From NCBI GenBank assembly GCA_030018855.1, contig JASEHG010000024.1, positions 1 through 16,220 on the forward strand: 16,220 bases of DNA, written 5' to 3'. The DNA comes from Candidatus Brocadiaceae bacterium. GTDB lineage: Bacteria > Planctomycetota > Brocadiia > Brocadiales > Bathyanammoxibiaceae. The position numbers and the translations under genes were made by a program. The notes beneath the pieces were generated by a model. That model did no database searches, was not told where the DNA came from, and saw only the letters and a list, made by a program, of their open reading frames with translations. Of this stretch, positions 961 through 14,486 are shown piece by piece. How positions within the stretch are numbered: the first letter of the stretch is position 1; every line of letters begins with the position of its first letter.

Positions 961-1084
961 TAGGGGGTAGGGAAGAATTGCATTGTAAATTGAAAATTGC
1001 AAATTTTAAAATTTAATCCGCCTCAGGCGGACCAATTTACACTTTACAATTTTCTGTTCCCTGGTCCCTACCCCCTACTCCCTA
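961..1084. repeat. Composite palindromic element in the divergent intergenic region. A 13-bp perfect outer stem encloses AT-rich word repeats and a small GC hairpin.
   Basis: TAGGGGGTAGGGA (961-973) is the exact reverse complement of TCCCTACCCCCTA (1066-1078). Inside are reiterated ATTGTAAA/TTTACAAT-type words, a perfect 14-nt palindrome AAATTTTAAAATTT (1001-1014) and the hairpin CCGCC-TCA-GGCGG (1018-1030). A related string CCTGAGGCGGACC recurs at about 1197-1209. Confidence 0.75.
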
Positions 1085-1110
1085 GTCTACACCGTCCATT
1101 TCAAAAGTTA

Positions 1111-1140
1111 TTGACATGATAGGAGGTAAACTGCTAGACT
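1111..1140 (+). promoter_or_regulatory. Candidate sigma70-like promoter for the 1256 ORF
   Basis: TTGACA (1111-1116), 18-nt spacer, TAGACT (1135-1140). Motif match only. Confidence 0.3.
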
Positions 1141-1255
1141 CTTCCCTTTAGGTATTATAGGGGCATCCGCCCGCCCAAAAGATGGCGGATTTTCAACCTG
1201 AGGCGGACCGCATTCCCACACTTCGGGCAGGATAAGAAGGGGAAAGGAGTATGAG

Positions 1256-1708
1256 ATGAGACCCTGGTTGACAGGGGTGGCGAGGCCACTCTTAACGGTA
1301 GTGGTGGTTTGGGGGTTGTCCATTCTTGTCTGGAATGGTCTTGTACTTGGAGAACTCAGACATCAATACTATCTCCTTGCTGAGACGGGTCACGAACCCG
1401 GGTGTGTGGTGGACATACATATTAATGATGAGCATGTTGCGGTGATAGAGCCAGAGGTTAAGAAGGAGATAGTGGACGTAACTTCTTTTGTGGAGGCAGG
1501 AGTTAACGAGGTAGTATTTGAGGCAGAAGCCCTTGCGGATGAGGGGGATGACGATGGCACAATAAGTATCCAGATAGGGTCTGGCACTTATAAGGATGGC
1601 AAGCTGAACTGGGAGGCCTTAAGTGTCCAGTACAGCGTGTCCAGGTCCCAGATAAAGAAGGAAAAGAAAGAGATTATCACCACCTCCCTTAAATTTGATG
1701 CCAGTTAG
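1256..1708 (+). CDS. Hypothetical protein with an N-terminal signal-anchor/TM helix (150 aa)
   Basis: ORF track entry. AGGAG lies about 8 nt upstream. The upstream ATG at 1250 runs into a TGA after two codons. N-terminal hydrophobic stretch LLTVVVVWGLSILVWNGLVL, then an acidic soluble domain with no motif I recognise. Confidence 0.55.
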   Translation: MRPWLTGVARPLLTVVVVWGLSILVWNGLVLGELRHQYYLLAETGHEPGCVVDIHINDEHVAVIEPEVKKEIVDVTSFVEAGVNEVVFEAEALADEGDDDGTISIQIGSGTYKDGKLNWEALSVQYSVSRSQIKKEKKEIITTSLKFDAS

Positions 1709-1738
1709 TCCTTACGGGGCGTAACAAAGGGGAAGGTC

Positions 1739-1766
1739 TTGAATTTTGTGTTTGTCAAGATATAAT
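1739..1766 (+). promoter_or_regulatory. Candidate sigma70-like promoter for the zinc-ribbon gene
   Basis: TTGAAT (1739-1744), 16-nt spacer, perfect TATAAT (1761-1766). GGAGG RBS about 8 nt before the ATG at 1810. Confidence 0.45.
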
Positions 1767-1809
1767 TTGTTAATCAGCAGTTAGCGTTTTGCTTTGGGGA
1801 GGTTAATGT

Positions 1810-2070
1810 ATGCCGACGTATGAGTATAGGTGTGAAGGTTGCGGTCATGAATTTGAGCTCTTTGAATCCATTAATGCCGGCAAGGTGAAGACCTGCCCCT
1901 CTTGCGGGAATAAGGCCAAGAGGCGTATTGGGACGGGGTCAGCCGTAATCTTTAAGGGGAGTGGTTTTTATCAGACGGATTATCGCAGTAAGGACTACCA
2001 CGACAAGGCCAAGGCAGAAAAGGGTGGCGGGGCCGCCCCAGGCGAGGCGTCCAAGGGGGGGAAACAATAG
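1810..2070 (+). CDS. FmdB-family zinc-ribbon protein (putative regulatory protein)
   Basis: N-terminus MPTYEYRCEGCGHEFE...CPSCG is the characteristic FmdB/CxxC-x(n)-CxxC zinc ribbon. It has a Gly/Lys-rich tail and a strong GGAGG RBS. Confidence 0.85.
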   Translation: MPTYEYRCEGCGHEFELFESINAGKVKTCPSCGNKAKRRIGTGSAVIFKGSGFYQTDYRSKDYHDKAKAEKGGGAAPGEASKGGKQ

Positions 2071-2081
2071 GCAGGGTGGTG

Positions 2082-2099
2082 GCGGGTCTCCAGACCCGC
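2082..2099 (+). terminator. Possible stem-loop terminator after the zinc-ribbon gene
   Basis: GCGGGTCT-CC-AGACCCGC, a perfect 8-bp stem, extended by AGGCAG (2069-2074) pairing with CTGCCT (2108-2113) and followed by GATTTT. There is no clean U-tract directly after the inner stem. Confidence 0.35.
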
Positions 2100-2138
2100 A
2101 AAATAGACTGCCTGATTTTGAGAAGACAGAGTTTGTTA

Positions 2139-2168
2139 TTGACAATAGAATGCGTACGATGTTATCAT
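2139..2168 (+). promoter_or_regulatory. Candidate sigma70-like promoter for the ACP-to-radical-SAM operon
   Basis: TTGACA (2139-2144), 18-nt spacer, TATCAT (2163-2168). It shares the TTATTGACA context with the 1111 candidate. Motif match only. Confidence 0.4.
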
Positions 2169-2257
2169 ATTTCAAATTTATTCCACCCGAGCGGGGTCTC
2201 TATAATCTAAAGGGTGGCTTTTTGTCTCAAAGGGTTTTAGAGTGAACAAAAAGGAGG

Positions 2258-2557
2258 GTGTATTTGGAGACACTGAGCACGGAAGAAGTAGAAAAGGATG
2301 TTACTGCCATAGTAGCAGAGGTGACCGAGCTAGATAGGGAGGAGATATGGCAGAAAAGGGAGGCCAACTTTTTCAAAGAACTGGAGATAGACTCCCTCCT
2401 GGCCCTGGAGATATTGGCCCTTATAGAAAAGAAGTTCAAGATTCAGATTCCTGAAGAGAAGCTGGTAGACATTACCTCTCTAACTGGCACCATCAATATG
2501 ACCAAAGCGGTCCTGTCTGAGAATGGAAGGCTCAAGGGAGAGCCTCAGAAGGCCTAG
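2258..2557 (+). CDS. Acyl carrier protein, dedicated and longer than canonical AcpP
   Basis: The phosphopantetheine-attachment motif EIDSLLALEI (DSL serine at about residue 46) sits in a small acidic helical protein. The tracked GTG at 2258 directly abuts the AAGGAGG SD (2251-2257). TTG at 2264, with 6-nt spacing, is the more plausible start. Confidence 0.85.
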   Translation: MYLETLSTEEVEKDVTAIVAEVTELDREEIWQKREANFFKELEIDSLLALEILALIEKKFKIQIPEEKLVDITSLTGTINMTKAVLSENGRLKGEPQKA

Positions 2558-2569
2558 GAAGGACCCTTT

Positions 2570-3019
2570 ATGGGTATCAGTTTTGAGGAGGTAAGGAGAC
2601 TAGTCCCTCAGAGGTATCCTTTTCTCTTCATAGACAAGGTGGTGGAGTTAGAGGAAGGTAAGAGGATCTTATGCCTAAAGAATGTCTCAGGAAATGAATC
2701 TTTTTTTGTAGGACATTTCCCAGAGTATGCCATAATGCCTGGGGTGCTGACCCTGGAAGCCCTGGCCCAAGCCTCCATAATCTTATTCAAAAAAAGCTTC
2801 CTTAAAGAAGAAACTTCCAATTCGGTATTCCTCCTGGCCTCTCTGAGGGCCAGTTTCGTAAAGCCTGTCTTCCCCGGAGACCAGTTACTCCTGGAAGTCA
2901 ACGTGGAAAAGGTGGTGTCCAAAGGGGCAATTGTGCAGGGTACGGCAAGGGTGGGGGAGGAGATAGTAGCCAAGGCCTCCTTGACCTTCGGTCTGGCTGA
3001 TAAGAGTTCTCTGGGTTAG
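2570..3019 (+). CDS. fabZ: 3-hydroxyacyl-ACP dehydratase FabZ
   Basis: Hallmark strings LVPQRYPFLFIDKV and GHFPEYAIMPGVLTLEALAQ, with the catalytic His and Glu present. Length is 149 aa. RBS AGGAAGGA is 7 nt upstream. Confidence 0.93.
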   Translation: MGISFEEVRRLVPQRYPFLFIDKVVELEEGKRILCLKNVSGNESFFVGHFPEYAIMPGVLTLEALAQASIILFKKSFLKEETSNSVFLLASLRASFVKPVFPGDQLLLEVNVEKVVSKGAIVQGTARVGEEIVAKASLTFGLADKSSLG

Positions 3020-3090
3020 ATTTGGAGATTTAGAGATTTGAGATTTAGGGATTTAAAATCTAAAAATCCAAAATCTCAAAATCTAAAATT
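3017..3090. repeat. Mirrored word array: about 5 x (R)GAGATTT followed by about 5 x AAAATCT(C), forming an imperfect hairpin
   Basis: The sequence reads TAGATTT GGAGATTT AGAGATTT GAGATTT AGGGATTT | AAAATCT AAAAATCC AAAATCTC AAAATCT AAAATT. The first TAG is the fabZ stop codon. The element ends 5 nt before the fabF ATG. Confidence 0.8.
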
Positions 3091-3095
3091 ATGAA

Positions 3096-4316
3096 ATGGA
3101 AAGGCGTGTAGTAGTCACTGGGCTGGGCGTAATTACCCCTATCGGTTCTGGCAAGGACAAGTTCTGGAAGGCCCTGCTGGAAGGGAAGTCAGGCGTAGGG
3201 GAGGTAACTTGCTTTGATACCTCAGGACACAAAGTCCATAGGGGTACGGAGGTAAGGGACTTTAATCCCAGGGACTACATTAAGAACGGGACCGTAGACC
3301 AGCTGGGTAAGGGGTCTCAGATGGCCATTGCGGCCACCAAGTTGGCCCTGATGGACGGGGGACTAGGGCTTGCGGAGGTTGACCCAACAAGGATTGGCGT
3401 ATCAGTAGGAACGACCGGGGGAGAGATACAGATACTGGAAAAGATAAACCTTATAAGATATGGGCAGGACGAAGACCATGTGGACATAGGCCTCTTTCTG
3501 AGGCATCCCTGCAACAATATCCCCTCCAACATTGCCAGAGAATTTGGCCTCAAGGGCCCCAACATTATTATTCCCACCGCCTGTGCAGCCGGCAATTACG
3601 CCATTGGTTACGCCTACGACCTTATAAAACTAGGGAGGGCTGATTATATGCTGGCAGGGGGGGCAGACCCCTTCTCCAAGGTGGCCTTTATTGGCTTTGG
3701 CCGCCTGGGGGCAGTGGCACCGGATATCTGTCAGCCCTTTGATAAAAACCGTAAAGGCATGCTTGTGGGAGAGGGGGCAGGCATACTATTACTGGAACCC
3801 CTGGATAATGCCCTGAAAAGGGGTGCCACTATCTATGCCGAGATTATCGGCTACGGCCTTAGTTGCGATGGGTATCACATCACTATCCCACACCCGGAAG
3901 GGGATGGGGTGGCCTCCTCACTGCGGAAGGCCCTGAAGAATGCCGACATAACCCCTGAGGACGTGCAGTATATAAATGCCCACGGGACCGGTACCGTTGC
4001 CAACGACAGGGCAGAAACTATCTCTATAAAGAAGGTCTTTGGGGACCATGCCAGGAAGTTACTGGTGAGTTCTATAAAGTCCATGATGGGTCACACCATG
4101 GGGGCGGCCAGCGCAATAGAGACGGTTACCTGTGCCCTGGTGGTAAAACATGACGTAGTCCCCCCCACTATCAATTATCAGACAAAGGACCCAGAATGTG
4201 ACCTGGATTATGTGCCTAACGTAAAAAGGGAACATCCCGTAAACATAGCCCTTAACACGGCCTATGCCTTTGGGGGTAACAACAGTTGTCTGGTTATAAA
4301 GAAGTTCTTGAATTAA
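3096..4316 (+). CDS. fabF: Beta-ketoacyl-ACP synthase II (FabF-type), catalytically complete
   Basis: N-terminus [15 protein letters not shown]. Active-site Cys is in [11 protein letters not shown], His in [10 protein letters not shown] and His in [21 protein letters not shown] and the C-terminal [11 protein letters not shown] are present. In-frame TAA at 3084-3086 fixes the start at 3096. No SD is visible upstream. Confidence 0.93.
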
Positions 4317-4362
4317 CCGCAACATGCAGCTCCTTTCCCTATATTTTTAGCCATACAGAGAA

Positions 4363-5589
4363 ATGCAGAAACGGGTCGTAGTAACAGGTATTGGGATTAT
4401 CAGCCCCATAGGCACCGGTAAGGAGGCCTTCTGGGGGAACCTGGCTGCGGGTGTCTCAGGGGTAAGGCCCGTTACCCTCTTTGACGTGAGTAGGTACACC
4501 AGCCGGGCGGCTGGAGAAATAACTGACTTCAGTCCCAAGACCTACCTTGGACAGAAAGGTATAAGGCATTTTGATAGGACAAGCCTACTCATAACTGCCA
4601 CCGCTGCTATGGCCCTGGAAGATGCCCGACTGGATAAGGTCTATGGGGAGGAAGATATAGGGATAGTGGTGGGGTCCACCTTTGGGAGCATTAACAGTAT
4701 ATCTACCTTTGACATGGACGCCCTCAGAGAGGGGCCCAATTACGTCAACCCAATGGATTTCCCCAATACCGTCCTTAATGCCCCCGCCAGCCGTGCCTCC
4801 ATTTTTTGCCAGGCTAAAGGGCTAAACTCTACCGTTTCCACAGGGGAGACCAGTGGGACGGACGCTATAATCTATGCCTCTGACTTTCTTAAGATGGAAA
4901 GGATAAAGGTGGTGCTAGCTGGGGGCGTTTATGGCCTTACGAGGGATATCTTCTGGGCGGCTTACAAGGCAGGGGTCCTCTCCGGCAGTAAAGACAGCCA
5001 ATCAGAAATATGCGCACCATTTGATAAGAGGCGGAACGGAATTGTACTGGGAGAAGGGGCCGCATTACTGGTCCTTGAGACCCTGGAAGATGCCCTGGCC
5101 CGTAAGGCCACCATATATGCAGAGGTCAAAGGTTATGGTACTGCCTTCAATCCCACGAGCCTGAGCCAGAGTGACCTCCAGGGTGGGGTAAGGGCAGTCT
5201 CCATGGCCCTCCAGGAGGCAGGCCTCGGCCCGCGGGATATATCCTATGTCTCGGCCAATGCCAACTCCAGCCCTAACGGCGACCGTATGGAGGCCACCGT
5301 TATAAAGGAATCCTTCAAGGAACGGGCAAAAAGCATCCCTGTTAGTGCCATAAAGTCCATGACCGGGGACTGCCTGGACGCCTCCGGAACCATGCAGTGT
5401 ATAGCCTGCGTCGGGGCAATCAATAACGGGATAATCCCCCCGACGATCAACTATCGGGAACCAGACCCATTATGTGACCTTGACGTAGTCCCTAACGTGA
5501 AGAGGGAAGCAGTGGTCAGACATGCCCTGGTACAGAGTTTTTCTTACACAGGCAACTGTTCTGCCATGGTACTGTCTAAATACTCCTGA
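4363..5589 (+). CDS. KS-like protein lacking the Cys-His-His triad (chain-length-factor-like partner of the preceding FabF)
   Basis: It has the same fold signature (KRVVVTGIGIISPIG, LAGG, PPTINY, DVVPN). By hand alignment anchored on LAGG, GYG and Y(I/V)xA, Cys is replaced by Glu (STGETSGTDAI), His1 by Ser (NPTSLSQ) and His2 by Asn (VSANANSS). The GH of IKSMxGH becomes GD. In-frame TAG at 4348-4350 fixes the start. Confidence 0.85.
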   Translation: MQKRVVVTGIGIISPIGTGKEAFWGNLAAGVSGVRPVTLFDVSRYTSRAAGEITDFSPKTYLGQKGIRHFDRTSLLITATAAMALEDARLDKVYGEEDIGIVVGSTFGSINSISTFDMDALREGPNYVNPMDFPNTVLNAPASRASIFCQAKGLNSTVSTGETSGTDAIIYASDFLKMERIKVVLAGGVYGLTRDIFWAAYKAGVLSGSKDSQSEICAPFDKRRNGIVLGEGAALLVLETLEDALARKATIYAEVKGYGTAFNPTSLSQSDLQGGVRAVSMALQEAGLGPRDISYVSANANSSPNGDRMEATVIKESFKERAKSIPVSAIKSMTGDCLDASGTMQCIACVGAINNGIIPPTINYREPDPLCDLDVVPNVKREAVVRHALVQSFSYTGNCSAMVLSKYS

Positions 5590-5595
5590 CAATGA

Positions 5596-7008
5596 ATGGG
5601 CAGACCCTCGGCAAAACGGTACGACGTAGTAGTCATTGGGGCGGGTATTGGGGGGCTGGTCTGTAGTGCCTTCCTGTCCAGGAAGGGGAAGAAGGTACTC
5701 CTGGTAGAACAGCATTCTCAGCCTGGGGGTTACTGCACTACGTTCAAGAGGAAAGGTTTCGTCTTTGATGCAGCCGTGCATCATATAGGAGGTTGCGGAC
5801 GCTACAGTATCGTGGGGAGGTGTCTGAAAGAGTTGGGTCTGGGAATGGAGTTCTTCAGGCTGGACCCTATGGACAGCCTCATCTTCCCCGATTTTTCTAT
5901 TGATATTCCAGCAGAAATAGAGGATTATATAACTCTGCTGGGCAAGAAATACCCATTAGAAAAGGGACACGTTGAGAAGTTCTTTAAGGATTTTGTAAAA
6001 CTCTACTGGGCCATAATCAACGAGGCCTCAGATAGCCCAACCTTGAATAACTACAAGAATACGACGTATAAAGAGATGCTGGATAGCTTTTTTGAGGACG
6101 AGGGGCTGAAGAGGACCCTGGCAGGTCAGTGGGGCTATCTTGGTACGCCCCCTGGAGAGGTATCCAGTATAGGGATGTGCCAGATGTTGATAAATTACCT
6201 GAGGGATGGGGCCTATTACCCCAAGGGTGGCACACAGAACTTTGCCAATGGCCTGGCTAAGAATTTTACCGAATCCGGAGGTGAGACCCTCCTATCCACT
6301 ATGGCAGAAGAGGTCCTCATGGACGGTAGGAAGGTAAGGGGCGTTAAGCTGGAAGGAGGATGTGAGGCCCTGGCAGACGTAGTGGTTTCTAACGTGGATG
6401 CCAGGCAGACCTTTTCACGCCTCGTTAAAGAAGAGTTTGACCATACGTATTCAGAGAGGCTAAGGGGCATGAAAGAAAGCCCCTCCTATTTCCTCCTATA
6501 TCTGGGGCTTGACCCGGAGATTGACCTGAAAGGGTTCAGGAGAGGCTTTTATCACGGTCCGGGTAACCAGTGGAAATACGTATCTGCCCCCACAAAGGTG
6601 GATAGCAGCCTGGCCCCTGGAGGGAGACAGATTCTTAACGTGGTAGCCACCGTAGAGGAAAGTTACGAAGAAGTGAGGGACTGGAAGGCCCTGAAGGACA
6701 GGCTCACCCAGGAGAACATAAATTATCTTGATAGGCTGATACCCGCTCCAGGTGGACTCAGAAAGCACATAGAAGTAGTGGAGGCCGCAACCCCCAGGAC
6801 CCTGGAGCGATACACCCTGAATTCCAGAGGGGCTGCCTACGGGTGGGCAGTTACCCCGGAGCAGACAGGTTCGGGAAGGCTGGACCATCGCACCCCACTA
6901 GATAATCTCTTTCTGGCAGGACACTGGACGAATCCAGGGCCAGGAGTCTGTGCGGTAGTATCTTCGGGCTGGAGGGTGGCAAATCTTATACTAGGGAGTA
7001 GGGGGTAG
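5596..7008 (+). CDS. FAD-dependent oxidoreductase of the phytoene desaturase (CrtI)/COG1233 family
   Basis: N-terminal dinucleotide fold YDVVVIGAGIGGLVCSAFLSRKGKKVLLVEQHSQPGGY. C-terminal family motif LFLAGHWTNPGPGVCAVVSSG. Length is 470 aa. The start is 6 nt after the KS-like stop. Confidence 0.85.
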   Translation: MGRPSAKRYDVVVIGAGIGGLVCSAFLSRKGKKVLLVEQHSQPGGYCTTFKRKGFVFDAAVHHIGGCGRYSIVGRCLKELGLGMEFFRLDPMDSLIFPDFSIDIPAEIEDYITLLGKKYPLEKGHVEKFFKDFVKLYWAIINEASDSPTLNNYKNTTYKEMLDSFFEDEGLKRTLAGQWGYLGTPPGEVSSIGMCQMLINYLRDGAYYPKGGTQNFANGLAKNFTESGGETLLSTMAEEVLMDGRKVRGVKLEGGCEALADVVVSNVDARQTFSRLVKEEFDHTYSERLRGMKESPSYFLLYLGLDPEIDLKGFRRGFYHGPGNQWKYVSAPTKVDSSLAPGGRQILNVVATVEESYEEVRDWKALKDRLTQENINYLDRLIPAPGGLRKHIEVVEAATPRTLERYTLNSRGAAYGWAVTPEQTGSGRLDHRTPLDNLFLAGHWTNPGPGVCAVVSSGWRVANLILGSRG

Positions 7009-7070
7009 GGGATAGGGAGTAGGGAAAAGAGAAAAGATTGCTACCCCCTACACCCTACCCCCTACACCCT
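6992..7070. repeat. TAGGG-word / CCCTA-word long imperfect hairpin, with G-quadruplex-capable arms
   Basis: Left arm TAGGGAGTAGGGGGTAGGGGATAGGGAGTAGGG (6992-7024), 16-nt A-rich loop, right arm CTACCCCCTACACCCTACCCCCTACACCCT (7041-7070). GGGGGTAGGG (7001-7010) is the exact complement of CCCTACCCCC (7053-7062). The left arm encodes the last codons and the TAG stop (7006-8) of the CrtI-like gene. Confidence 0.85.
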
Positions 7071-7092
7071 AATTAAAGAGGAGGTAAGTTAT

Positions 7093-8544
7093 ATGAAAAA
7101 GATGCTCCTGATTAACCCTCATCCGCCAGGACGCCACGGGGAGGAGAGTATCCATGTCATCGTCCAGATGCCCTTGAACCTGGCTTACATCGCCGCCCTC
7201 ACACCAGGGGATTGGGAGTTTGACGTCGTTGACGAGAACATAGAACTCGCCCTGGACGAAAAGGAACAGGAGATAACTTTTGAGCCTCCCGACCTGGTGG
7301 CCATCACGGCACTGACCTATCAGGCCCCAAGGGCCTACAGGATCGCCATGGCCTGCAGGAAGCGCGGCATACCTGTCATCATGGGTGGTATCCATGCCTC
7401 CGTCTGCTCTGAGGAGGCCGTCCAGTACGTGGACGCCGTTATAACAGGCGAGGCGGAGACCGTCTGGCCAGAGGTAATCAGGGACTTTGAGCAGGGACAG
7501 CTGAAAAAGATATACAACGGCGGCCTGCCCCCTCTTTCTACGTTGAAAAAAGTCTACCCCGACAGAGAACTCCTGAAGAAGAAGTACGGCTACAAGTTTT
7601 CCTCCATAATCACCACCAAGGGCTGTCCCAACCGGTGCGACTTCTGCAGTGTACCTACCTTCCAGGGGCAGAAATTCAGGGAAAGACCCTATGAGGACGT
7701 CCTGGACGAGATGGCCGCTACGGACTACAAAGGTCTGATGTTCGCCGAAGATAATTTCTACGGGCACAGCGTAAAGTCTGCTGAACGGGCCAAAAACCTC
7801 TTCAGGGGTATGATAGACAGGAACCTGGGCAAGAACTGGTTGGGCTTCACTGCCCTGAACATCGGCCTTGACCCTGAGGTCCTACAGCTTATGACTAAAT
7901 CGGGCTGTTTTGGATTCCTTGTGGGTATTGAGTCCACCAACGAGCAGGTCCTTCAGAAGATGAACAAGAAGGTCAACCTCAGGCTGGGGACTACGAGTTA
8001 CAAGGACTGCATAAAGAAGGTCCACGACGCAGGCCTGATTGTCTGGGGTTCGGTGGTATTCGGTGCTGACGGAGACGACAAGGACTCCTTTAAGAGGATG
8101 GTGGACTTTATCCTGGACTGCCAGGTAGATATCCTCACCTACGGCCTAGATTGCCCATTTCCCAAGACCCCGTTATTCTACAGGTTAGATGCCGAAAGGA
8201 GACTCTTCAGGAAGAATTTCCCCTGGGACTGGCAGTACTATGAGACCGCACACATAGTCCACCGCCTCGTGGATATGACACTGGATGATTTTGTTAACGG
8301 CATGCAGTACGTTTACGACCATCTCTATGCCGGAGACAATCTCAGGATGCGTTTCAAGAATTCCATTAAGGCCACAGGCAATCCCCGCAACTCCATGTTT
8401 GCCCTGAGGGTAAGCCAGGATTGGGACCGGGTCTTCAAACAGGTGCTGGAGAACCTCCACAAGCTACAGGAATCAGGGGATTATTATAAGGATTGTTATA
8501 AAGAGACCGGTAAGACTGCCGTCTCTCTTTCAGGCACTGCTTAG
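7093..8544 (+). CDS. B12-binding-domain radical SAM enzyme (class B rSAM)
   Basis: N-terminal cobalamin-binding-type Rossmann segment (LVAITALTYQAPRAYRIAMACRKRGIPVIMGGIHAS), followed by the radical SAM cluster motif GCPNRCDFCS (CxxxCxxC). Strong RBS AGAGGAGG 8 nt upstream. Confidence 0.9.
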   Translation: MKKMLLINPHPPGRHGEESIHVIVQMPLNLAYIAALTPGDWEFDVVDENIELALDEKEQEITFEPPDLVAITALTYQAPRAYRIAMACRKRGIPVIMGGIHASVCSEEAVQYVDAVITGEAETVWPEVIRDFEQGQLKKIYNGGLPPLSTLKKVYPDRELLKKKYGYKFSSIITTKGCPNRCDFCSVPTFQGQKFRERPYEDVLDEMAATDYKGLMFAEDNFYGHSVKSAERAKNLFRGMIDRNLGKNWLGFTALNIGLDPEVLQLMTKSGCFGFLVGIESTNEQVLQKMNKKVNLRLGTTSYKDCIKKVHDAGLIVWGSVVFGADGDDKDSFKRMVDFILDCQVDILTYGLDCPFPKTPLFYRLDAERRLFRKNFPWDWQYYETAHIVHRLVDMTLDDFVNGMQYVYDHLYAGDNLRMRFKNSIKATGNPRNSMFALRVSQDWDRVFKQVLENLHKLQESGDYYKDCYKETGKTAVSLSGTA

Positions 8545-8549
8545 AAGTT

Positions 8550-8609
8550 GTAGGGGCGTATTGTTCGCTATTATGCGAATCTGCCTAAGGCATGGCAATA
8601 CGCCCCTAC
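8550..8609. repeat. GTAGGGGC-family element folding as a three-way junction
   Basis: Perfect 14-bp outer stem GTAGGGGCGTATTG (8550-8563) / CAATACGCCCCTAC (8596-8609). It encloses two mini-hairpins, TTCGC-TATTAT-GCGAA (8564-8579) and TGCC-TAA-GGCA (8582-8592). It starts 6 nt after the rSAM stop and has no U-tract. Confidence 0.8.
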
Positions 8610-8684
8610 CGCGGCCCCTCTAATAACCACTCTTAAAGGAGCTTACGTCTGGTGCAAATCTTTGCATGAGGCCCGATTTTGCTA

Positions 8685-8712
8685 TTGACTTTTGGTTTTT
8701 ATTCGCTAAACT
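8685..8712 (+). promoter_or_regulatory. Candidate distal promoter for the Rieske/cyt b operon
   Basis: TTGACT (8685-8690), 16-nt spacer, TAAACT (8707-8712). Palindrome TGCAAA-TC-TTTGCA (8653-8666) lies just upstream. Motif match only. Confidence 0.3.
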
Positions 8713-8837
8713 ATCCGTGCTTCTCAGTGAGGAGGGAGGCCAATAGCCATCTACCTAAAAGGCAGGAGGTTCAGTATCACAGGGGCCGCGCCTACGGTAC
8801 TTGTGATTCGGTGGAGTTGTCTGTACGAAATGCGGGC

Positions 8838-8865
8838 TTGAAATTTCCATTTAGAATGCTATAAA
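8838..8865 (+). promoter_or_regulatory. Candidate proximal promoter for the Rieske/cyt b operon
   Basis: TTGAAA (8838-8843), 16-nt spacer, TATAAA (8860-8865). It would give a leader of about 100 nt containing the 8891-8939 hairpins. GGAGG RBS at 8961-8965. Confidence 0.4.
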
Positions 8866-8890
8866 ATACAACATCCTTCTCCTAATAGAC

Positions 8891-8939
8891 GTAGGGCACG
8901 GTTTTAACCCTGCCCAATATGGACAGACCTTTAGGTCTG
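8891..8939. repeat. Leader hairpins of the GTAGGG / CTGCCCA word family
   Basis: GTAGGGCACGG-TTTTAA-CCCTGCCC (8891-8915) is a stem with one mismatch. It is followed by CAGACCT-TT-AGGTCTG (8924-8939). The word CTGCCCA(A)TA occurs at 8911, 8936 and 11472. Confidence 0.5.
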
Positions 8940-8971
8940 CCCATACTACGTACACCTCTTGGAGGTAGGCG

Positions 8972-10873
8972 ATGGCTCACGAGGATAGGTTTACCATAGA
9001 TTTAGGACAGCCTGAACTCAATATAAACATCCTGCCACGTCTTGCTATCCGCTATAAAGGTTCCTTCCAAAAGCTCCTCTCAGAAAGAAAATACAAAGCA
9101 GACGTTGCCAATGACCTACAATGGTTCCACAAAAACGTACCCTGCCGTGAGGCCTGTCCTGTAGGGACTAATGCCAGGGCCTATGTCACGGCCATTGCTA
9201 AGGGGGATTACCAGGAGGCCTACCTTGTAGCTCGTGAAAACAACCCCTTTGTATCTGTCTGCGGTAAGATTTGTAATGCCCCCTGTGAACCTGTCTGCAC
9301 CAGGAGTAAGCTGGACGAACCGGTGTCCATTAGGGCCCTGAAAGGGTTTGCGGTAGAAAAAAACCGTCTGGGCACCAGAGAGGTCTACCAGTGGCTCAAT
9401 AAAAAGAAGGGGAAGGTGTCGCTTGCTGGAAAGGCAGAAGTTCCTAATATAGCAATAGTTGGAGCAGGGCCTGCGGGCCTGTCTGCCGCACACGACCTCG
9501 CTCTTATGGGTTACAAGGTGAAACTACTGGAGGCCTCCAGCCAGCCTGGTGGTATGTTGAACAACGCCATCCCCGCCTTCAGGCTAGACAGAGAGGCAGT
9601 AAAAAGAGACATAGAAGGCATCCTCTCGCTGGGTATGGAATTAGAGATTAACACCAGGTGTGGAGAGGACTTCGGTATAGATGAGCTCAGGCAGAAGTAC
9701 GATGCCGTACTCTTAGCCGCCGGCTTACAGAAGGGTAGGTCCCTGGACGTGCCTGGCATGGAACTAGCAGGGGTATCTCAGGGGCTGGATTTCCTCAAAG
9801 AAGTGGCCTCCAGGGGGAGGGCCTCATTGGGGACGAAGGTTGTGGTAGTGGGCGGGGGTAGTATGGCTGTAGAGGTGGCCCGTACTGCACGGCGATTAGG
9901 GGTATGGAATACAAAGGTAACTGTGGTCTCTTACGAGGCATCCAGGGGTACGAAGCCCGGAAAGCCGGGGCAAGAGATGACAGCAGAGGATACGGAGATT
10001 GCTGAGGCCCTACAAGAAGGGGTGGTATTCTATCCAGGGCTTGGTCCTAGACGCATATTGGGAGAAGGCGGCAGGGTAACGGGTCTGGAACTGGTCCCGG
10101 TTGTGGCACTAGACCGTGACGGGGGAGGGCGATATAAACCTGTCTTTGGGCAAAACGGTTCCAGCGTTATAGAGGCAGACACGGTACTCCTGGCGATTGG
10201 CCAGGAGCCTGATACTGCCCTTCTCCAGAATACGAATTGTGGGGTGCGGATTGCGGAATCCCGCATCCTGCATTCCGAATTCCGCATTCCTGGGGCGGAT
10301 GGGGTCTTTGTCTGTGGTGACCTGGCTGGTGCTGGGCATGTAGTGGAGGCGGTTGCCTCCGGGCAGAAGGCCGCCCTTGCCATCCATAATTACCTGGAAG
10401 GCAAGGGTTCTCTTGGACTAGGCGAACTGCGCCCTGTAGTACCCGTCCACCACCACGAGAAATCGGACACCTTTACCAAACGGCTTACGATAGGTCGGAT
10501 TCTGCCTCCAATAGCACCCACAGATGCCAGGCTCAGGGGTATGGACCCCGTGGAAGGGAGTTATTCTGAGAAGGTTGCCAGGAGGCAGGCGGAGAGGTGC
10601 CTGGACTGTACGGTAAGCCCAATGATAGGGCCCTACCATCCTTGCACCGCCTGTGGCGACTGTCTGGACGTCTGCCCTACAGAGTGTCTTTCTTTAAGGT
10701 TCATGAATAATAAAGACCTCAGTTTTGGTGACAGTTGCATAGAGGAGGCTGAGGGAGAAGGCCCCTGGGTGGGGTTAATTATAAATGAAGAGGAGTGTGT
10801 CCACTGCGGGGCCTGCGCCGAGGCCTGCTGGTCGGATGCCATATACATGGTAAAGTTCAAAGAGATGGAATAG
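8972..10873 (+). CDS. GltD-like FAD/NAD(P)H-dependent iron-sulfur oxidoreductase with a C-terminal 2x[4Fe-4S] ferredoxin domain (NAD(P)-linked subunit of the Rieske/cyt b complex)
   Basis: N-terminal GltD-type Cys clusters (CREACPVGTNARAYV; VCGKICNAPCEPVCTR). Two dinucleotide folds (IAIVGAGPAGLSAA; VVVVGGGSMAVEVA). GVFVCGD motif. C-terminal CTACGDCLDVCP and CVHCGACAEAC. Confidence 0.88.
   Translation: MAHEDRFTIDLGQPELNINILPRLAIRYKGSFQKLLSERKYKADVANDLQWFHKNVPCREACPVGTNARAYVTAIAKGDYQEAYLVARENNPFVSVCGKICNAPCEPVCTRSKLDEPVSIRALKGFAVEKNRLGTREVYQWLNKKKGKVSLAGKAEVPNIAIVGAGPAGLSAAHDLALMGYKVKLLEASSQPGGMLNNAIPAFRLDREAVKRDIEGILSLGMELEINTRCGEDFGIDELRQKYDAVLLAAGLQKGRSLDVPGMELAGVSQGLDFLKEVASRGRASLGTKVVVVGGGSMAVEVARTARRLGVWNTKVTVVSYEASRGTKPGKPGQEMTAEDTEIAEALQEGVVFYPGLGPRRILGEGGRVTGLELVPVVALDRDGGGRYKPVFGQNGSSVIEADTVLLAIGQEPDTALLQNTNCGVRIAESRILHSEFRIPGADGVFVCGDLAGAGHVVEAVASGQKAALAIHNYLEGKGSLGLGELRPVVPVHHHEKSDTFTKRLTIGRILPPIAPTDARLRGMDPVEGSYSEKVARRQAERCLDCTVSPMIGPYHPCTACGDCLDVCPTECLSLRFMNNKDLSFGDSCIEEAEGEGPWVGLIINEEECVHCGACAEACWSDAIYMVKFKEME
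10244..10286. repeat. In-frame copy of a 43-nt GCGGAAT/ATTCCGC word element inside the GltD-like CDS
   Basis: GTGCGGATTGCGGAATCCCGCATCCTGCATTCCGAATTCCGCA matches the intergenic 11405-11447 at 33 of 43 positions (hand count). The first 7 and last 13 nt are identical, over the same overall length. It encodes VRIAESRILHSEFRI. Confidence 0.45.
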
Positions 10874-10888
10874 GGAGAAAAATGTTTT

Positions 10889-11392
10889 ATGTTTAAACCA
10901 GTGGCGAAGGCTGAGGCTATAGACCCGAAGAAGATTGCCCGTAGGGAGGCTATCCGAAAGGGCCTCTTCTGGGCCTGTTGGGGGGTCTTCATTGGGTTTG
11001 CCGGGATATTAGGGGCAAGCATAGTGAGGTTTGCGTATCCCAGGATAGTCTTTGAGCCCTCCAGTATATTTAAAGCCGGTAAACCGGACGACTACAAGGT
11101 AGGTTCGGTTGCGCTTATCCATGGTAGAGGGGTCTTTGTGATAAGGACGGAAAAGGGATTCTATGCCCTATCAGCCAAGTGTACCCATTTGGGATGCCAG
11201 CCCATCTGGTATGAGGACCAGCAGGTCTTCAAGTGTCCGTGTCATGGCGCCCGTTTTGATAAGGAAGGTATTAACTTTGCCGGTCCAGCCCCCCTGCCAT
11301 TGCCCAGGTTCCACCTGAGCCTCTCCCCGGATGGCCGTTTACTGGTAGATAAGTCAACAAACGTGGGTATGGACTTCTTCCTGGAGGCATGA
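10889..11392 (+). CDS. Rieske [2Fe-2S] protein
   Basis: CTHLGC...CPCHGARFD cluster-binding boxes. N-terminal Arg-rich segment (IARREAIRKGLF) followed by a TM helix, as in Tat-dependent Rieske anchors. The upstream ATG at 10882 hits a TAA after 4 codons. Confidence 0.92.
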   Translation: MFKPVAKAEAIDPKKIARREAIRKGLFWACWGVFIGFAGILGASIVRFAYPRIVFEPSSIFKAGKPDDYKVGSVALIHGRGVFVIRTEKGFYALSAKCTHLGCQPIWYEDQQVFKCPCHGARFDKEGINFAGPAPLPLPRFHLSLSPDGRLLVDKSTNVGMDFFLEA

Positions 11393-11404
11393 AAAGGGCG
11401 TGGA

Positions 11405-11447
11405 GTGCGGAGTACGGGATTCTGGACTCCGCCTTCCGAATTCCGCA
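11405..11447. repeat. Intergenic 43-nt GCGGA/TCCGC word element
   Basis: Contains the hairpin GCGGAGT-N12-ACTCCGC and the 3' string TTCCGAATTCCGCA. It is paralogous to 10244-10286. Confidence 0.55.
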
Positions 11448-11452
11448 CAGTT

Positions 11453-11477
11453 GTAGGGGCAGGGCTTGCCCCTGCCC
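11453..11477. repeat. GTAGGGGC-family hairpin
   Basis: GTAG-GGGCAGGG-CTTGC-CCCTGCCC (8-bp stem, 5-nt loop). It is preceded by GTT as in the 8547 copy and followed by ATA. Confidence 0.7.
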
Positions 11478-11502
11478 ATAAGAAAGGCGAGGTAAGATTG
11501 GA

Positions 11503-12123
11503 ATGAAGTGGGTACCGTTAGGCCTTGTGAGATATACCGTCTGTCTGGGCGGGCTCAGTGTGTTCTTCTTCCTGTTATGCATCCTCACCGGGCCATTCCT
11601 GATGCTTTATTATGTGCCTGACGTGAACCGTGCCCATGCCGACGTGATGGATATTATGCAGGTAGTGCCCTTTGGGGCCTTTGTCAGGAACGTCCACCGC
11701 TGGTCGGCCTGTCTTATGATTGTCTGCGTACCCGCACACATGACCAGGGTATTCCTTCAGGCCGCATATAAGCCCCCGCGCCAGCTCAACTGGCTGGTAG
11801 GGATTACGCTGCTAATCCTTACCTATCTCATGTGTTTCACGGGCTACATGCTCCCCTGGGACCAGGAGGCCTACTGGGGCGCCACCATCGGGGCCACCAT
11901 GGCGGAGAACTCCCCTTTCCTTGGGGCAAAAGGACCCTTTAGCGTACTTCCGCCAGATAAGGACATACATTACATAATGCTGGGTGGTACCGTGTTAGAC
12001 CAACCGACGCTCAGCCGTTTCTTTTTCGCGCACTGTATCGCTATCCCAGGTGCCCTCGCAGGGTTAATGGGATTCCACTTTTTCAATATCCACAGGGCCG
12101 GTGGTATGTCGGGCCCATTATAA
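11503..12123 (+). CDS. Cytochrome b, N-terminal (b6-like) subunit
   Basis: Helix B heme ligands HRWSACLMIVCVPAH (H-x13-H) and helix D HCIAIPGALAGLMGFH (H-x14-H). N-terminal VCLGG matches the YCLGG heme-ci cysteine context of b6. In-frame TAA at 11479-81 fixes the start. Confidence 0.92.
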   Translation: MKWVPLGLVRYTVCLGGLSVFFFLLCILTGPFLMLYYVPDVNRAHADVMDIMQVVPFGAFVRNVHRWSACLMIVCVPAHMTRVFLQAAYKPPRQLNWLVGITLLILTYLMCFTGYMLPWDQEAYWGATIGATMAENSPFLGAKGPFSVLPPDKDIHYIMLGGTVLDQPTLSRFFFAHCIAIPGALAGLMGFHFFNIHRAGGMSGPL

Positions 12124-12137
12124 CCAGGGAACAACCT

Positions 12138-12938
12138 ATGGCAGAAAAGATCGTTGAAGAAGGACCAGTAACCGCAGAGGGCAAAGAAAAGCTGAGACTC
12201 CTCACAGTGGTGAGGGGTGAGACCCTGCGGAATAGGGACATCTACGAGAGACCTCCCAAGTACGAACTCTTCTTCCCCAATTTCGTGATGAAGGAGTTGT
12301 GCGTGGGATTGGCCTTCCTAATAATTATCTTTATGTGGGCCTACTTTAAGGATTCGCCCCTTTACGAGTTGTCTGACCCCGCTGAGACACCTTCACACAT
12401 AAAGGCCGCATGGTACTTTGTGGGATTACAGGAGATGCTGGCCTATTTTGACCCCTATCTGGCAGGGGTGATTATCCCCTCCATGATACTGGCCGGGCTT
12501 TATCTGATACCCTTTATTGACCCAGACCCGGTGAAGGGGATAGGCCGTTTTGCCTTCAAGGAGAGGAAGTTCGCCATCGGCTGTTTCCTGGGGGGGGTTG
12601 CCATGTGGTATGGCCTCCTCCTGGTGGGCTGGTTCTTCAGGGGACCTTACTGGAGCTTCTACTGGCCGTGGGAGGACCACTCGGTAGTGAAGGCCACGGA
12701 AGTAGCCCTCTGGAGCTTCCCCCTCCCAGCAGGGATAGCCTTCCTCGTGTGTTATGGGATGTTGGTGCTTATCCTCCCCGCCGTTATCTTCCAGAACTTC
12801 TTCTTCCGGCTGGGGTTGATAAGATACCTTATCACGTTTAACCTCTTTGCGGTCATGTGTTTCGTACCCATCAAGATACTTCTGAGAAGCGCATTTAGTG
12901 TGAAATATATACTTGTAACACCATGGTTCAACATTTAA
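12138..12938 (+). CDS. Cytochrome b C-terminal subunit (subunit IV-like, extended with extra TM helices)
   Basis: AAWYFVGLQEMLAYF aligns with the PEWYF(Y/L)P Qo-site segment of subunit IV / cyt b C-terminal domains. Multiple hydrophobic helices. It starts 14 nt after the cyt b stop. Confidence 0.85.
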   Translation: MAEKIVEEGPVTAEGKEKLRLLTVVRGETLRNRDIYERPPKYELFFPNFVMKELCVGLAFLIIIFMWAYFKDSPLYELSDPAETPSHIKAAWYFVGLQEMLAYFDPYLAGVIIPSMILAGLYLIPFIDPDPVKGIGRFAFKERKFAIGCFLGGVAMWYGLLLVGWFFRGPYWSFYWPWEDHSVVKATEVALWSFPLPAGIAFLVCYGMLVLILPAVIFQNFFFRLGLIRYLITFNLFAVMCFVPIKILLRSAFSVKYILVTPWFNI

Positions 12939-12966
12939 GAGGAGACCGCTGAAAAACATGCGCAGT

Positions 12967-13039
12967 GTCATTCTGAGGGAGCGAAGCGACCGAAGAATCT
13001 CAGTTGAAACGGGAGATTCTTCGCTTCGCTCAGAATGAC
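12967..13039. repeat. Long three-segment hairpin (CATTCTGAG...CTCAGAATG type)
   Basis: Left arm GTCATTCTGAG-ggag-CGAAGCGA-ccga-AGAATCTC, loop AGTTGAAACGG, right arm GAGATTCT-TCGCTTCG-CTCAGAATGAC. That is 27 bp in three helices with two 4-nt bulges and no U-tract. Confidence 0.85.
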
Positions 13040-13084
13040 AGGACGTATCATTGAGACTTTTGCAGAGGTCTCAAGAGACTAAAA

Positions 13085-14338: not shown

Positions 14339-14404
14339 AGGGTAATTAGAGGAGGGGAGGTGATAAGACAAAACGTGTTATGTGTGCCCGCCGAACTACG
14401 CCGA

Positions 14405-14473
14405 AGGCAAATTTGCCTGAGGCACGAGCGGATTCTAGTCACCGGTAAGAAATTTCTAGACAGATAACTCTAG
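14405..14473 (+). promoter_or_regulatory. Palindrome plus three TCTAG words upstream of the HAO-like gene (possible operator/internal regulatory region)
   Basis: Perfect 14-nt palindrome AGGCAAATTTGCCT (14405-14418). TCTAG occurs at 14434, 14455 and 14469 (21-nt and 14-nt spacing). The RBS-like AAGGGG is 7 nt before the ATG at 14487. Confidence 0.3.
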
Positions 14474-14486
14474 AAAGGGGAAAAAT

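Follow-up and report, generated by a model that had tools for sequence, protein, structure and literature searches.

Few open problems in lipid biochemistry are older than the question of how the fused cyclobutane 'ladder' of ladderane lipids is made, and the consensus candidate for this biosynthesis is a gene set known as Cluster I. In Kuenenia stuttgartiensis, Cluster I encodes KustE3603-3608: the acyl carrier protein (ACP) amxACP, the dehydratase amxFabZ, the two ketosynthase (KS) homologues amxFabF2 and amxFabFmut, a phytoene-dehydrogenase homologue and a radical S-adenosylmethionine enzyme (rSAM) that depends on cobalamin (PMC10139942; bioRxiv 10.64898/2026.05.19.726425). It has been treated in Rattray 2009, Dietl 2023 and the Granatino 2026 preprint. 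Here we describe a six-gene operon of the same make-up in a 16,220-nt stretch of DNA, contig JASEHG010000024.1 of assembly GCA_030018855.1 (hereafter the window), and compare it with loci fetched from genomes and metagenomes, which are labelled L001 and so on.

The structure of amxACP has been solved, and amxFabZ was found to dehydrate (3R)-3-hydroxyacyl chains on amxACP and not on canonical ACP; the enzyme strongly prefers C6-C8 chains and scarcely converts those beyond C8 (PMC10139942). Its sequence signature is an Ile at position 69, where canonical FabZ has Gly, together with the lack of a basic residue at positions 96 and 115 (PMC10139942). Each inactive alone, amxFabF2 and amxFabFmut together form a heterodimer like that of a KS and a chain-length factor (CLF), which decarboxylates malonyl-amxACP and prefers C6-C8 probes, a preference shaped by residues of amxFabFmut (bioRxiv 10.64898/2026.05.19.726425). 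The heterodimer was demonstrated only with the orthologues of B. fulgida, Iga11 is the closest neighbour of amxFabF2 by structure, and the structure authors regard the earlier proposal that amxFabFmut has a catalytic role of its own as refuted (bioRxiv 10.64898/2026.05.19.726425). Cluster I has been reported to be highly expressed in anammox bacteria (PMC10139942), and to be 'encountered exclusively' in, or 'unique to', ladderane producers (PMC10139942; bioRxiv 10.64898/2026.05.19.726425).

Results

Identity of the operon

The six genes of the window stand in the same order and orientation as those for KustE3603-3608. Compared with Kuenenia, Brocadia and Scalindua, their products are 72-81% (ACP), 66-70% (FabZ), 71-74% (the active KS, here KS1), 61-63% (the CLF-like protein, here KS2), 53-58% (flavoprotein) and 72-75% (rSAM) identical. 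We regard it as near certain that the operon is the Ca. Bathyanammoxibiaceae orthologue of Cluster I. An original prediction, which a model had made from the window without database searches, already named kuste3603-3608 as the counterpart and cited Rattray 2009 as the source for the candidate cluster (PMC2649909). Both statements proved correct. Four of the proteins match solved amx structures far above canonical fatty acid synthase (FAS) proteins. Pfam matches and catalytic residues likewise bore out the predicted set of an ACP, a dehydratase, an active KS, an inactive KS-like protein, a flavin desaturase-family protein and a cobalamin-type rSAM.

All of the best matches of the window ACP in the Protein Data Bank (PDB) were amxACP (7auf_A at 5.6e-39, then 9s5i_E and 7qv0_D), with canonical ACPs at ~1e-6 or weaker, and the protein scored 44 bits against a cutoff of 70 for the NCBIfam family acyl_carrier. 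It carries the serine of the DSL motif, and the motif EIDSLLALE was invariant in 66 loci. The window ACP is a dedicated carrier of the amxACP type, distinct from canonical ACP. The window FabZ matched amxFabZ (7qv0_A/8ayi_A) at 1e-62, compared with 1e-29 for canonical FabZ. Its catalytic residues His49 and Glu63 are intact, and it has the residues of the amxFabZ signature, namely Ile69 (in 'ASIILF') and Val at both 96 and 115, with no Lys or Arg there. The signature Ile of FabZ, the Cys-His-His triad of the KS, the triad-less partner and the tunnel residues described below are all common to Cluster I and the window. The window differs from Cluster I in the residues at the triad positions of the CLF-like protein, in lineage-specific hairpins within two spacers, and in a Rieske/cytochrome b-HAO operon that follows directly downstream.

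A genome scan with one genome per GTDB species showed the window to be ~99% identical to MHYW01000013 of 'Planctomycetes bacterium RIFCSPHIGHO2_12_FULL_52_36', a metagenome-assembled genome (MAG) from Rifle groundwater. FULL_52_36 has been assigned to Ca. Bathyanammoxibiaceae, a family of Brocadiales that branches deeply and is described as having the potential for anammox (PMC9723696), in agreement with the predicted anammox assignment. The best 120 matches in a search with KS2 were all from Brocadiales: proteins of MAGs labelled 'Brocadiales/Planctomycetota' at 70-98%, then Scalindua and Brocadia at 60-64%. The window itself holds no hzs or hdh gene, and the Rieske/cytochrome b/HAO operon downstream is of anammox type. 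We found no paper that discusses Cluster I in Bathyanammoxibiaceae.

Gene order is conserved among the Brocadiales-type loci. The original prediction had proposed a check of synteny, and all complete Brocadiales-type loci (80/80; GC 0.35-0.53) keep the six-gene order; each incomplete locus stops at the end of its contig, except L036, where a stretch of N interrupts it. Carriers of the cassette include Brocadia, Kuenenia, Jettenia, Scalindua, Anammoxibacter, Loosdrechtia and Subterrananammoxibius. For Wunengus (L055) the locus is a 2.6-kb fragment with no genes other than those of the KS and the CLF-like protein. The presence of the cassette in all sampled anammox families, Bathyanammoxibiaceae included, suggests that it was already in their common ancestor. 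Two host labels were distrusted as probable binning errors: 'Thermodesulfobacteriota' for L031, an 8-kb contig with Scalindua-like sequence and GC (0.39), and 'Actinomycetota' for L067, which belongs with the 'delta proteobacterium' loci L068 and L073 to a single sequence type.

Related cassettes outside anammox bacteria

Complete colinear cores of the order ACP-FabZ-KS-CLF-flavoprotein-rSAM were also found in three kinds of host outside Brocadiales, with 45-72% identity per protein to the window. The operon of the window has its counterpart in an already known gene cluster; this related family outside anammox bacteria is the more interesting result. The original prediction had asked whether the arrangement is common in non-anammox bacteria. 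It is not common, since it was seen in a handful of species among 185,579, but it does exist there. The published claim of exclusivity is contradicted by these cassettes. We found no paper that reports the six-gene cassette outside anammox bacteria. Calls of 'ladderane' regions by antiSMASH in non-anammox genomes were not counted as prior reports: those that we inspected from a cenote study are too short (1.2-1.35 kb, 2-3 genes), and for those of a Cariaco study no gene content is given.

The first kind of host is a Blastocatellia MAG (Acidobacteriota), whose cassette on a 59.8-kb contig (L075) is, from ACP to rSAM, 72, 59, 68, 52, 45 and 62% identical to the window. The possibility that this contig is chimeric or mis-binned was rejected on four observations. 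The best matches of the flanking seryl-tRNA synthetase all carry Blastocatellia labels (70-72%), GC is flat (0.48-0.51) across flank and cassette, the contig was independently reassembled as a 95-kb JGI contig (L081), and the proteins lie outside the Brocadiales identity range.

The second kind is a high-GC soil type, represented by two 'delta proteobacterium' MAGs and a metagenome contig (L068, L073 and L161), with identities to the window of 45, 54-56, 57-58, 50-51, 49-50 and 59-61% in the same order; metagenomes hold ~30 further clusters of this type at 90% identity. A third lineage is represented by L162. In both the high-GC type and L162 the core is extended by two extra rSAM paralogues of the kuste3608 type in tandem (three in all), a second KS/CLF pair and an enoyl-CoA hydratase (ECH). 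L161 also carries a short-chain dehydrogenase resembling a ketoreductase (KR), and the high-GC type adds a TetR gene and an upstream module of AMP-ligase, KS, ACP, 3-hydroxyacyl-CoA dehydrogenase and ECH.

Diagnostic residues of the anammox cassettes recur in these. Their FabZs have the amx-type signature, with Ile or Leu at 69 and neither position 96 nor position 115 basic, and the tunnel residues of the CLF-like protein are the same. More distant or partial versions were also met. The metagenome contig L082 (6124-11051, GC 0.54) has a variant with ACP, FabZ, KS, CLF and flavoprotein, the five genes interrupted by a UPF0047 gene before the flavoprotein, and the 4.4 kb downstream hold no rSAM; the CLF of L082 shares 58% identity with that of the window, at the edge of the Brocadiales range. 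L079 (Oscillospiraceae label, GC 0.36) carries a rearranged and more distant version, and many soil contigs hold only KS-CLF(-flavoprotein) at 35-40% identity.

In neighbour-joining (NJ) trees of five of the six proteins, Brocadiales formed one clade with L075 and L068/L073 just outside. The NJ tree of the ACP, a short protein that is uninformative here, put L075 inside the Brocadiales clade. A concatenated tree of five proteins (1838 columns, 200 bootstraps, rooted on L079) recovered Brocadiales as monophyletic in 200/200 bootstraps and the non-anammox cassettes as their sister group in 139/200. Because the trees place these cassettes outside the Brocadiales clade, they are not recent transfers out of known anammox lineages.

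The ketosynthase pair

KS1 has the triad Cys163-His296-His333, and Cys-His-His was found in all 83 orthologues and paralogues of this type that we examined. It matched amxFabF2 (9s5h_B) at 4.7e-201, compared with 2e-103 for the best canonical FabF. Iga11 (6kxd), the KS for the polyene ishigamide, was among its best PDB matches at 1.3e-102, as near as any FabF. KS2 matched amxFabFmut (9s5h_C) at 1.7e-166, and by sequence it is nearer to FabF than to ActI-ORF2 (1tqy_B, 3e-42). The tunnel residues F-P-N-T-V (Phe135, Thr138 and Val139 of B. fulgida) are invariant in KS2. The original prediction had called this protein a 'dead KS', a description that is now outdated, as the triad-less subunit of the heterodimer is CLF-like and needed for activity (bioRxiv 10.64898/2026.05.19.726425). 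Its phrase 'chemistry still unknown' likewise no longer applies to the ACP, FabZ and KS/CLF pair, which have been solved and assayed, and still applies to the uncharacterised flavoprotein and rSAM.

At the positions of the Cys, His and His of the triad, the window KS2 has Glu, Asn and Asp. Glu-Asn-Asp or Glu-Asn-Glu stands there in L001-L010, which are loci of Bathyanammoxibiaceae type and those nearest to them (the window is included, and L006 is Subterrananammoxibius). Brocadiaceae have Val-Asn-Glu, Scalinduaceae have Thr or Val followed by Cys-Glu, and the nearest non-anammox relatives (L075, L067 and L068) have Glu-Gly-Glu. The former Cys position is thus Glu in these non-anammox cassettes as well, and Val, Thr or Ile in the other anammox families. 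The preprint lists only Val or Thr at this position of amxFabFmut (bioRxiv 10.64898/2026.05.19.726425), and Glu is a new variant compared with these. In our comparison Val and Thr were limited to Brocadiaceae and Scalinduaceae. Since Glu is common to the Bathyanammoxibiaceae-type loci and the nearest non-anammox relatives, it is probably the ancestral residue.

The arrangement resembles the KS/CLF pairs of type II polyketide synthases (PKSs), such as ActI, Iga11/Iga12 and the aryl-polyene systems, in that an active KS stands beside a triad-less homologue, a dedicated ACP and a dehydratase, and in that the inactive subunit of the heterodimer shapes the acyl tunnel in the anammox orthologues. 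It differs from them in the residue at the Cys position, which is Glu in the window, where the CLFs of aromatic type II PKSs typically have Gln. Genes for a KR, a cyclase and an aromatase are also lacking in the window, and the operon adds a CrtI-like flavoprotein and a B12-rSAM.

FabZ and KS1 also gave sub-threshold NCBIfam matches to cispentacin enzymes (FabZ to AmcE at 97.5 bits, cutoff 140; KS1 to AmcF at 241 bits, cutoff 325). The cispentacin system is type II PKS-like and forms its carbocycle on an ACP, and the matches may reflect an analogy of mechanism, not membership.

The flavoprotein and the B12-radical SAM enzyme

The flavoprotein belongs to the CrtI/CrtISO family by its FAD-binding Rossmann motif GxGxxG, which reads GAGIGG, and by a full-length Amino_oxidase match. 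Its nearest solved structure is CrtI (4dgk, 4.6e-30). In the NCBIfam comparison it scored 177 bits against a cutoff of 238 for crtI_fam (TIGR02734), stayed far under every equivalog, and also resembled carotenoid isomerases.

The rSAM has the motif CPNRCDFC (CxxxCxxC) at residues 178-185 and scored 49 bits on PF02310 (cutoff 32) and 59.7 bits on PF04055 (cutoff 29.5). With an N-terminal B12-binding domain and a radical SAM core it falls in class B, and cobalamin binding is predicted. Most class B rSAMs are methyltransferases. The protein reached no curated NCBIfam equivalog, and its top match there was the PhpK P-methyltransferase family. Its nearest solved structures (9ccb, TsrM and AprD4) are remote, at E ~1e-10. 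The rSAM family forms one full-length cluster among 1.84 billion representatives at 50% identity, and its next relatives are 41-45% identical. Exact-sequence look-ups with the window CLF-like protein and with P0241, the representative of the rSAM cluster, gave no match.

FAS-like genes are also combined with B12-rSAM and CrtI-like genes in Kuenenia kuste3335-3352 and Desulfotalea psychrophila DP1853-1860, clusters for which a part in making ladderanes or polyunsaturated hydrocarbons has likewise been proposed, and the Desulfotalea synteny described by Rattray chiefly concerns this other Kuenenia cluster (PMC2649909). These clusters differ from Cluster I in having another rSAM family, for which TIGR04072 (rSAM_ladder_B12) was built; the window rSAM scored 81.9 bits against its cutoff of 360, and those of L068, L075 and L079 also failed it. 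The idea that the extended cassettes are Cluster I fused to a second cluster of the Kuenenia/Desulfotalea type was rejected, as their extra rSAMs scored 63-73 of 360 bits on TIGR04072. Their rSAM_3 had no TIGR04072 match at E <= 1e-15, and the extra rSAMs are paralogues of the kuste3608 type.

Operon layout and transcription signals

The coordinates of the genes, of the signals around them and of the non-anammox cassettes are collected in Table 1. The six open reading frames (ORFs) are separated by 12, 76, 46, 6 and 84 nt in the ORF list of the window, exactly as predicted.

Table 1. Positions of the operon genes and putative signals in the window, and of the cassettes found outside anammox bacteria
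Feature	Sequence	Position	Strand	Description	Basis
ACP gene	window	2258-2557	+	99 aa, GTG start	Pfam PP-binding PF00550, 3e-12
FabZ gene	window	2570-3019	+	149 aa	Pfam FabA-like PF07977, 2.4e-24
KS1 gene	window	3096-4316	+	406 aa; active ketosynthase, amxFabF2 orthologue	ketoacyl-synt N/C, 2e-43/8e-41
KS2 gene	window	4363-5589	+	408 aa; triad-less, CLF-like, amxFabFmut orthologue	ketoacyl-synt N/C, 1e-36/8e-26
Flavoprotein gene	window	5596-7008	+	470 aa; FAD-dependent, CrtI/CrtISO family, kuste3607 orthologue ('PDH')	Amino_oxidase/NAD_binding_8, 3e-21/2e-16
rSAM gene	window	7093-8544	+	483 aa; cobalamin-type (class B), kuste3608 orthologue	B12-binding/Radical_SAM, 7e-13/5e-16
Candidate sigma-70-type promoter	window	2139-2168	+	-35 TTGACA at 2139-2144, 18-nt spacer, extended -10 TG-n-TATCAT at 2160-2168	
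Putative ribosome-binding site	window	2252-2257	+	AGGAGG	read from sequence; AAGGAG kept in upstream alignment
Hairpin	window	3037-3080	+	18-nt arms; fills the 76-nt FabZ-KS1 spacer	inverted repeat I4
Palindrome	window	6984-7079	+	tandem TAGGGNG heptamers and their complement; 39-nt arms	inverted repeat I1
Stem-loop 3' of the rSAM stop	window	8550-8609	+	perfect 14-bp stem, no T-run	inverted repeat I5
Cassette in Blastocatellia MAG (Acidobacteriota)	L075 (= L081)	5774-12104		59.8-kb contig	
Cassette in 'delta proteobacterium' MAG, soil	L068	8021-17153		1.8-Mb contig, 68-70% GC	
Cassette in 'delta proteobacterium' MAG, soil	L073			382-kb contig, 68-70% GC	
Cassette in soil metagenome	L161	8030-17186		239-kb contig, 68-70% GC	
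Cassette of third lineage	L162	6497-15836		GC 0.55; beside TonB-receptor-like gene	

The single promoter of the original prediction also withstood comparison. It is the top sigma-70 consensus match within 1000-9200 (11/12, with TG), and in an alignment of 11 Bathyanammoxibiaceae-type loci TTATTGACAAT and TG(T/G)TAT are kept 5' of the ACP gene while the flanks diverge. Such conservation of the hexamers amid diverging flanks is independent support for the predicted promoter. At the start of the ACP gene, GGAGG (2253-2257) is followed with no gap by GTG 2258, and TTG 2264, in the same frame, stands 6 nt downstream, a normal spacing. Because the spacing from the ribosome-binding site is nil for GTG 2258 and 6 nt for TTG 2264, the latter is more likely the start, and the protein probably has 97 aa, not 99.

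Large hairpins lie inside two of the spacers. The FabZ-KS1 spacer is merely 12-17 nt in the relatives L002 and L003; weak promoter-like matches at 3031-3067 overlap its hairpin in the window. The palindrome at 6984-7079 extends over the flavoprotein stop codon and takes up most of the 84 nt that precede the rSAM gene, and it folds with -55.7 kcal/mol (z = -6.3). This spacer is ~20 nt in relatives, and L002, L003 and L005 show 12-30 nt at both hairpin-bearing spacers. Because relatives have ~20 nt at the same place, the palindrome looks like a small lineage-specific repeat element inserted within the operon. Its heptamer TAGGGNG is enriched in the window (12 matches compared with 4.5 expected), and a second TAGGGNG palindrome lies upstream of the operon at 961-1084.

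At the 3' end, the stem-loop behind the rSAM gene folds with -37.4 kcal/mol (z = -4.7). The next gene begins at 8972 after a 427-nt spacer and has its own promoter-like site at 8838-8867. A scan for intrinsic terminators gave 10 sites compared with 9.2 in shuffled sequence, none of them convincing after the rSAM gene. An Rfam scan of the whole window found no riboswitch or RNA family, and no cobalamin riboswitch before the B12 enzyme. Together the conserved promoter and the 3' stem-loop support the prediction of a single operon.

The window encodes no KR, enoyl reductase (ER) or malonyl transferase, so these steps must be borrowed from elsewhere. Downstream (8972-16220) lie genes for a GltD-like FAD/FeS oxidoreductase, a Rieske protein, a split cytochrome b and a multihaem cytochrome, followed by an HAO-like octahaem gene that is truncated by the window end. 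The six-gene operon adjoins this Rieske/cytochrome b-HAO set only in the closest relatives (L001-L003, L083 and L114); the adjacency was not found in the Bathyanammoxibiaceae-type L005 and L008 or in other anammox families. Upstream are a divergent sensor gene on the minus strand (1-918, dCache_1 domain, truncated by the window start), a 150-aa ORF without a family match (1256-1708) and a gene for an FmdB-type zinc-ribbon protein (1810-2070). The latter two also stand upstream of this operon in the loci L001-L003 and L114, and so does the zinc-ribbon gene in L008.

Discussion

The explanation that we consider best, and fairly probable as a whole, is that the window carries a Cluster I orthologue whose products run a private FAS/PKS-like line feeding unusual chemistry toward ladderane tails. 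Participation of the operon in ladderane synthesis as such we hold with similar, moderate confidence. The first four genes would provide a private type II FAS/PKS-like line, kept apart from housekeeping synthesis by its own ACP. In it, the active KS and its triad-less partner would form a KS/CLF-like heterodimer that primes by decarboxylation of malonyl-ACP and handles chains of ~C6-C8, and the amx-type FabZ would dehydrate short 3-hydroxyacyl chains solely on the dedicated ACP. The KS/CLF and FabZ steps have been shown for orthologues from Brocadia, Scalindua and Kuenenia, and may be extended to the window from the identities of 61-81% and the shared functional residues. The CrtI/CrtISO-like flavoprotein may then desaturate or isomerise the ACP-bound chain, and the B12-rSAM may make a radical C-C bond that either joins the chain to the cyclobutane part or builds that part. 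The end product in anammox bacteria would be the ladderane lipid tails. For the flavoprotein and the rSAM these roles are inferred, as is the link to ladderanes.

As to the mechanism, we lean tentatively, and at less than even confidence, to the 'type b' scheme, in which a short linear handle is made by this operon and radical coupling or cyclisation follows. The structure authors can most readily reconcile their data with a scheme where this machinery supplies the short, linear portion of the ladderane fatty acid (PMC10139942; bioRxiv 10.64898/2026.05.19.726425). The ladderane link now rests on universal conservation in anammox bacteria, on the reported high expression and on the match of the C6-C8 preference to the linear part, and not on exclusivity.

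Several points weigh against this explanation. The structure authors state that no experiment ties any Cluster I protein to ladderane formation (PMC10139942; bioRxiv 10.64898/2026.05.19.726425). Candidate genes expressed in E. coli gave no ladderanes, the original prediction having rightly cited Javidpour 2016 for this failure ('efforts ... were not successful'), and in a crtI-replacement test kuste3607 yielded no lycopene, a difference from CrtI (PMC4790861). The description of Bathyanammoxibiaceae makes no mention of ladderanes (PMC9723696). The case for a single transcript is drawn from spacing and the promoter footprint, not from RNA, and the operon has large hairpins inside two of its spacers. 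Lastly, a complete cassette outside Brocadiales weakens the phyletic argument, the main reason for the ladderane assignment.

This last point leads to the rival that survives best, although we consider it unlikely: that the operon is no ladderane pathway and makes another specialised ACP-derived lipid or polyketide, such as a short chain that is methylated, desaturated or cyclised in some other way, which anammox bacteria would share with a few soil bacteria, ladderanes being made by other genes. Complete colinear cassettes in Blastocatellia, in the high-GC soil type with its ~30 metagenomic clusters and in the third lineage are in its favour, as is their branching outside the fully supported Brocadiales clade. 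The prevalence of methyltransferases among class B rSAMs and the PhpK match of the window rSAM would also suit it, and so would the lack of an experimental ladderane link noted above. The other Kuenenia cluster, moreover, is syntenic with one in Desulfotalea, which makes polyunsaturated hydrocarbons and no ladderanes (Rattray 2009, PMC2649909). Against such a product speak the presence and colinearity of the cassette in every anammox family sampled, its high reported expression (PMC10139942), and the fact that it holds the only conserved 'exotic' enzymes beside a dedicated ACP. The C6-C8 preference, too, matches the linear part of ladderane fatty acids in length.

Quite unlikely, in our judgement, is a polyene or polyunsaturated fatty acid (PUFA) route ('type a'), in which the KS/CLF pair, the dehydratase and a borrowed KR would assemble a polyunsaturated chain on ACP, with enoyl reduction omitted and/or the CrtI-like desaturase taking part, and the B12-rSAM would fold it into fused cyclobutanes by a radical cascade. 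The original prediction had suggested such an ACP-tethered polyunsaturated intermediate. KS1 being as close to Iga11 as to any FabF would fit it, as would the layout of KS/CLF, dehydratase and ACP without ER, which is that of a highly reducing type II PKS. The FabZ homologues of the non-anammox cassettes also match the aryl-polyene families ApeI/ApeP, and a CrtI-family enzyme sits in the operon. However, amxFabZ hardly converts chains beyond C8 and the heterodimer prefers C6-C8 (PMC10139942; bioRxiv 10.64898/2026.05.19.726425), PUFAs were detected neither in anammox bacteria nor in E. coli with the genes expressed, and the isotope labelling did not match (PMC10139942), and kuste3607 does not desaturate phytoene (PMC4790861). 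With these published data the polyene route is disfavoured, the test substrates having been saturated and linear only.

Improbable, finally, is stepwise ring building ('type c'), in which the rSAM would, after each elongation and dehydration, take a hydrogen from 2-enoyl-ACP and close one cyclobutane, so that the ladder would grow on the dedicated ACP by one ring at a time and receive its linear part at the end: the scheme gives every operon gene a role in a repeated cycle, has a precedent in ACP-bound ring formation by type II PKS-like enzymes (the sub-threshold AmcE/AmcF matches) and would fit the tandem rSAM triplication of the extended cassettes as several distinct ring-forming steps, but the labelling observed in the ladder part disagrees with it (PMC10139942), later cycles would need FabZ and KS substrates bulkier than C8, which are disfavoured with linear probes, and the AmcE and AmcF matches lie under the curated cutoffs.

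Returning to the proposed private line feeding ladderane synthesis, the window shows Cluster I intact in the deep-branching Bathyanammoxibiaceae and supplies a natural variant of the CLF subunit with Glu at the former active-site Cys. The cassettes outside Brocadiales remove the argument 'found only in ladderane producers', which was a large part of the basis for the assignment. A further proposition is that the Cluster I cassette is no anammox invention, that a wider, previously unrecognised family reaches into soil Acidobacteriota (Blastocatellia) and other non-anammox bacteria, and that its carriers make ladderane-like or radical-cyclised fatty acids; taken as a whole we find it doubtful. 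The non-anammox cassettes are new test systems, the extended ones being self-contained with their own KR, ECH and three rSAMs, and this matters because anammox bacteria are not genetically manipulable. If it is true that their carriers make ladderane-like lipids, the high-GC cassettes would offer an expressible route to the ring-forming chemistry.

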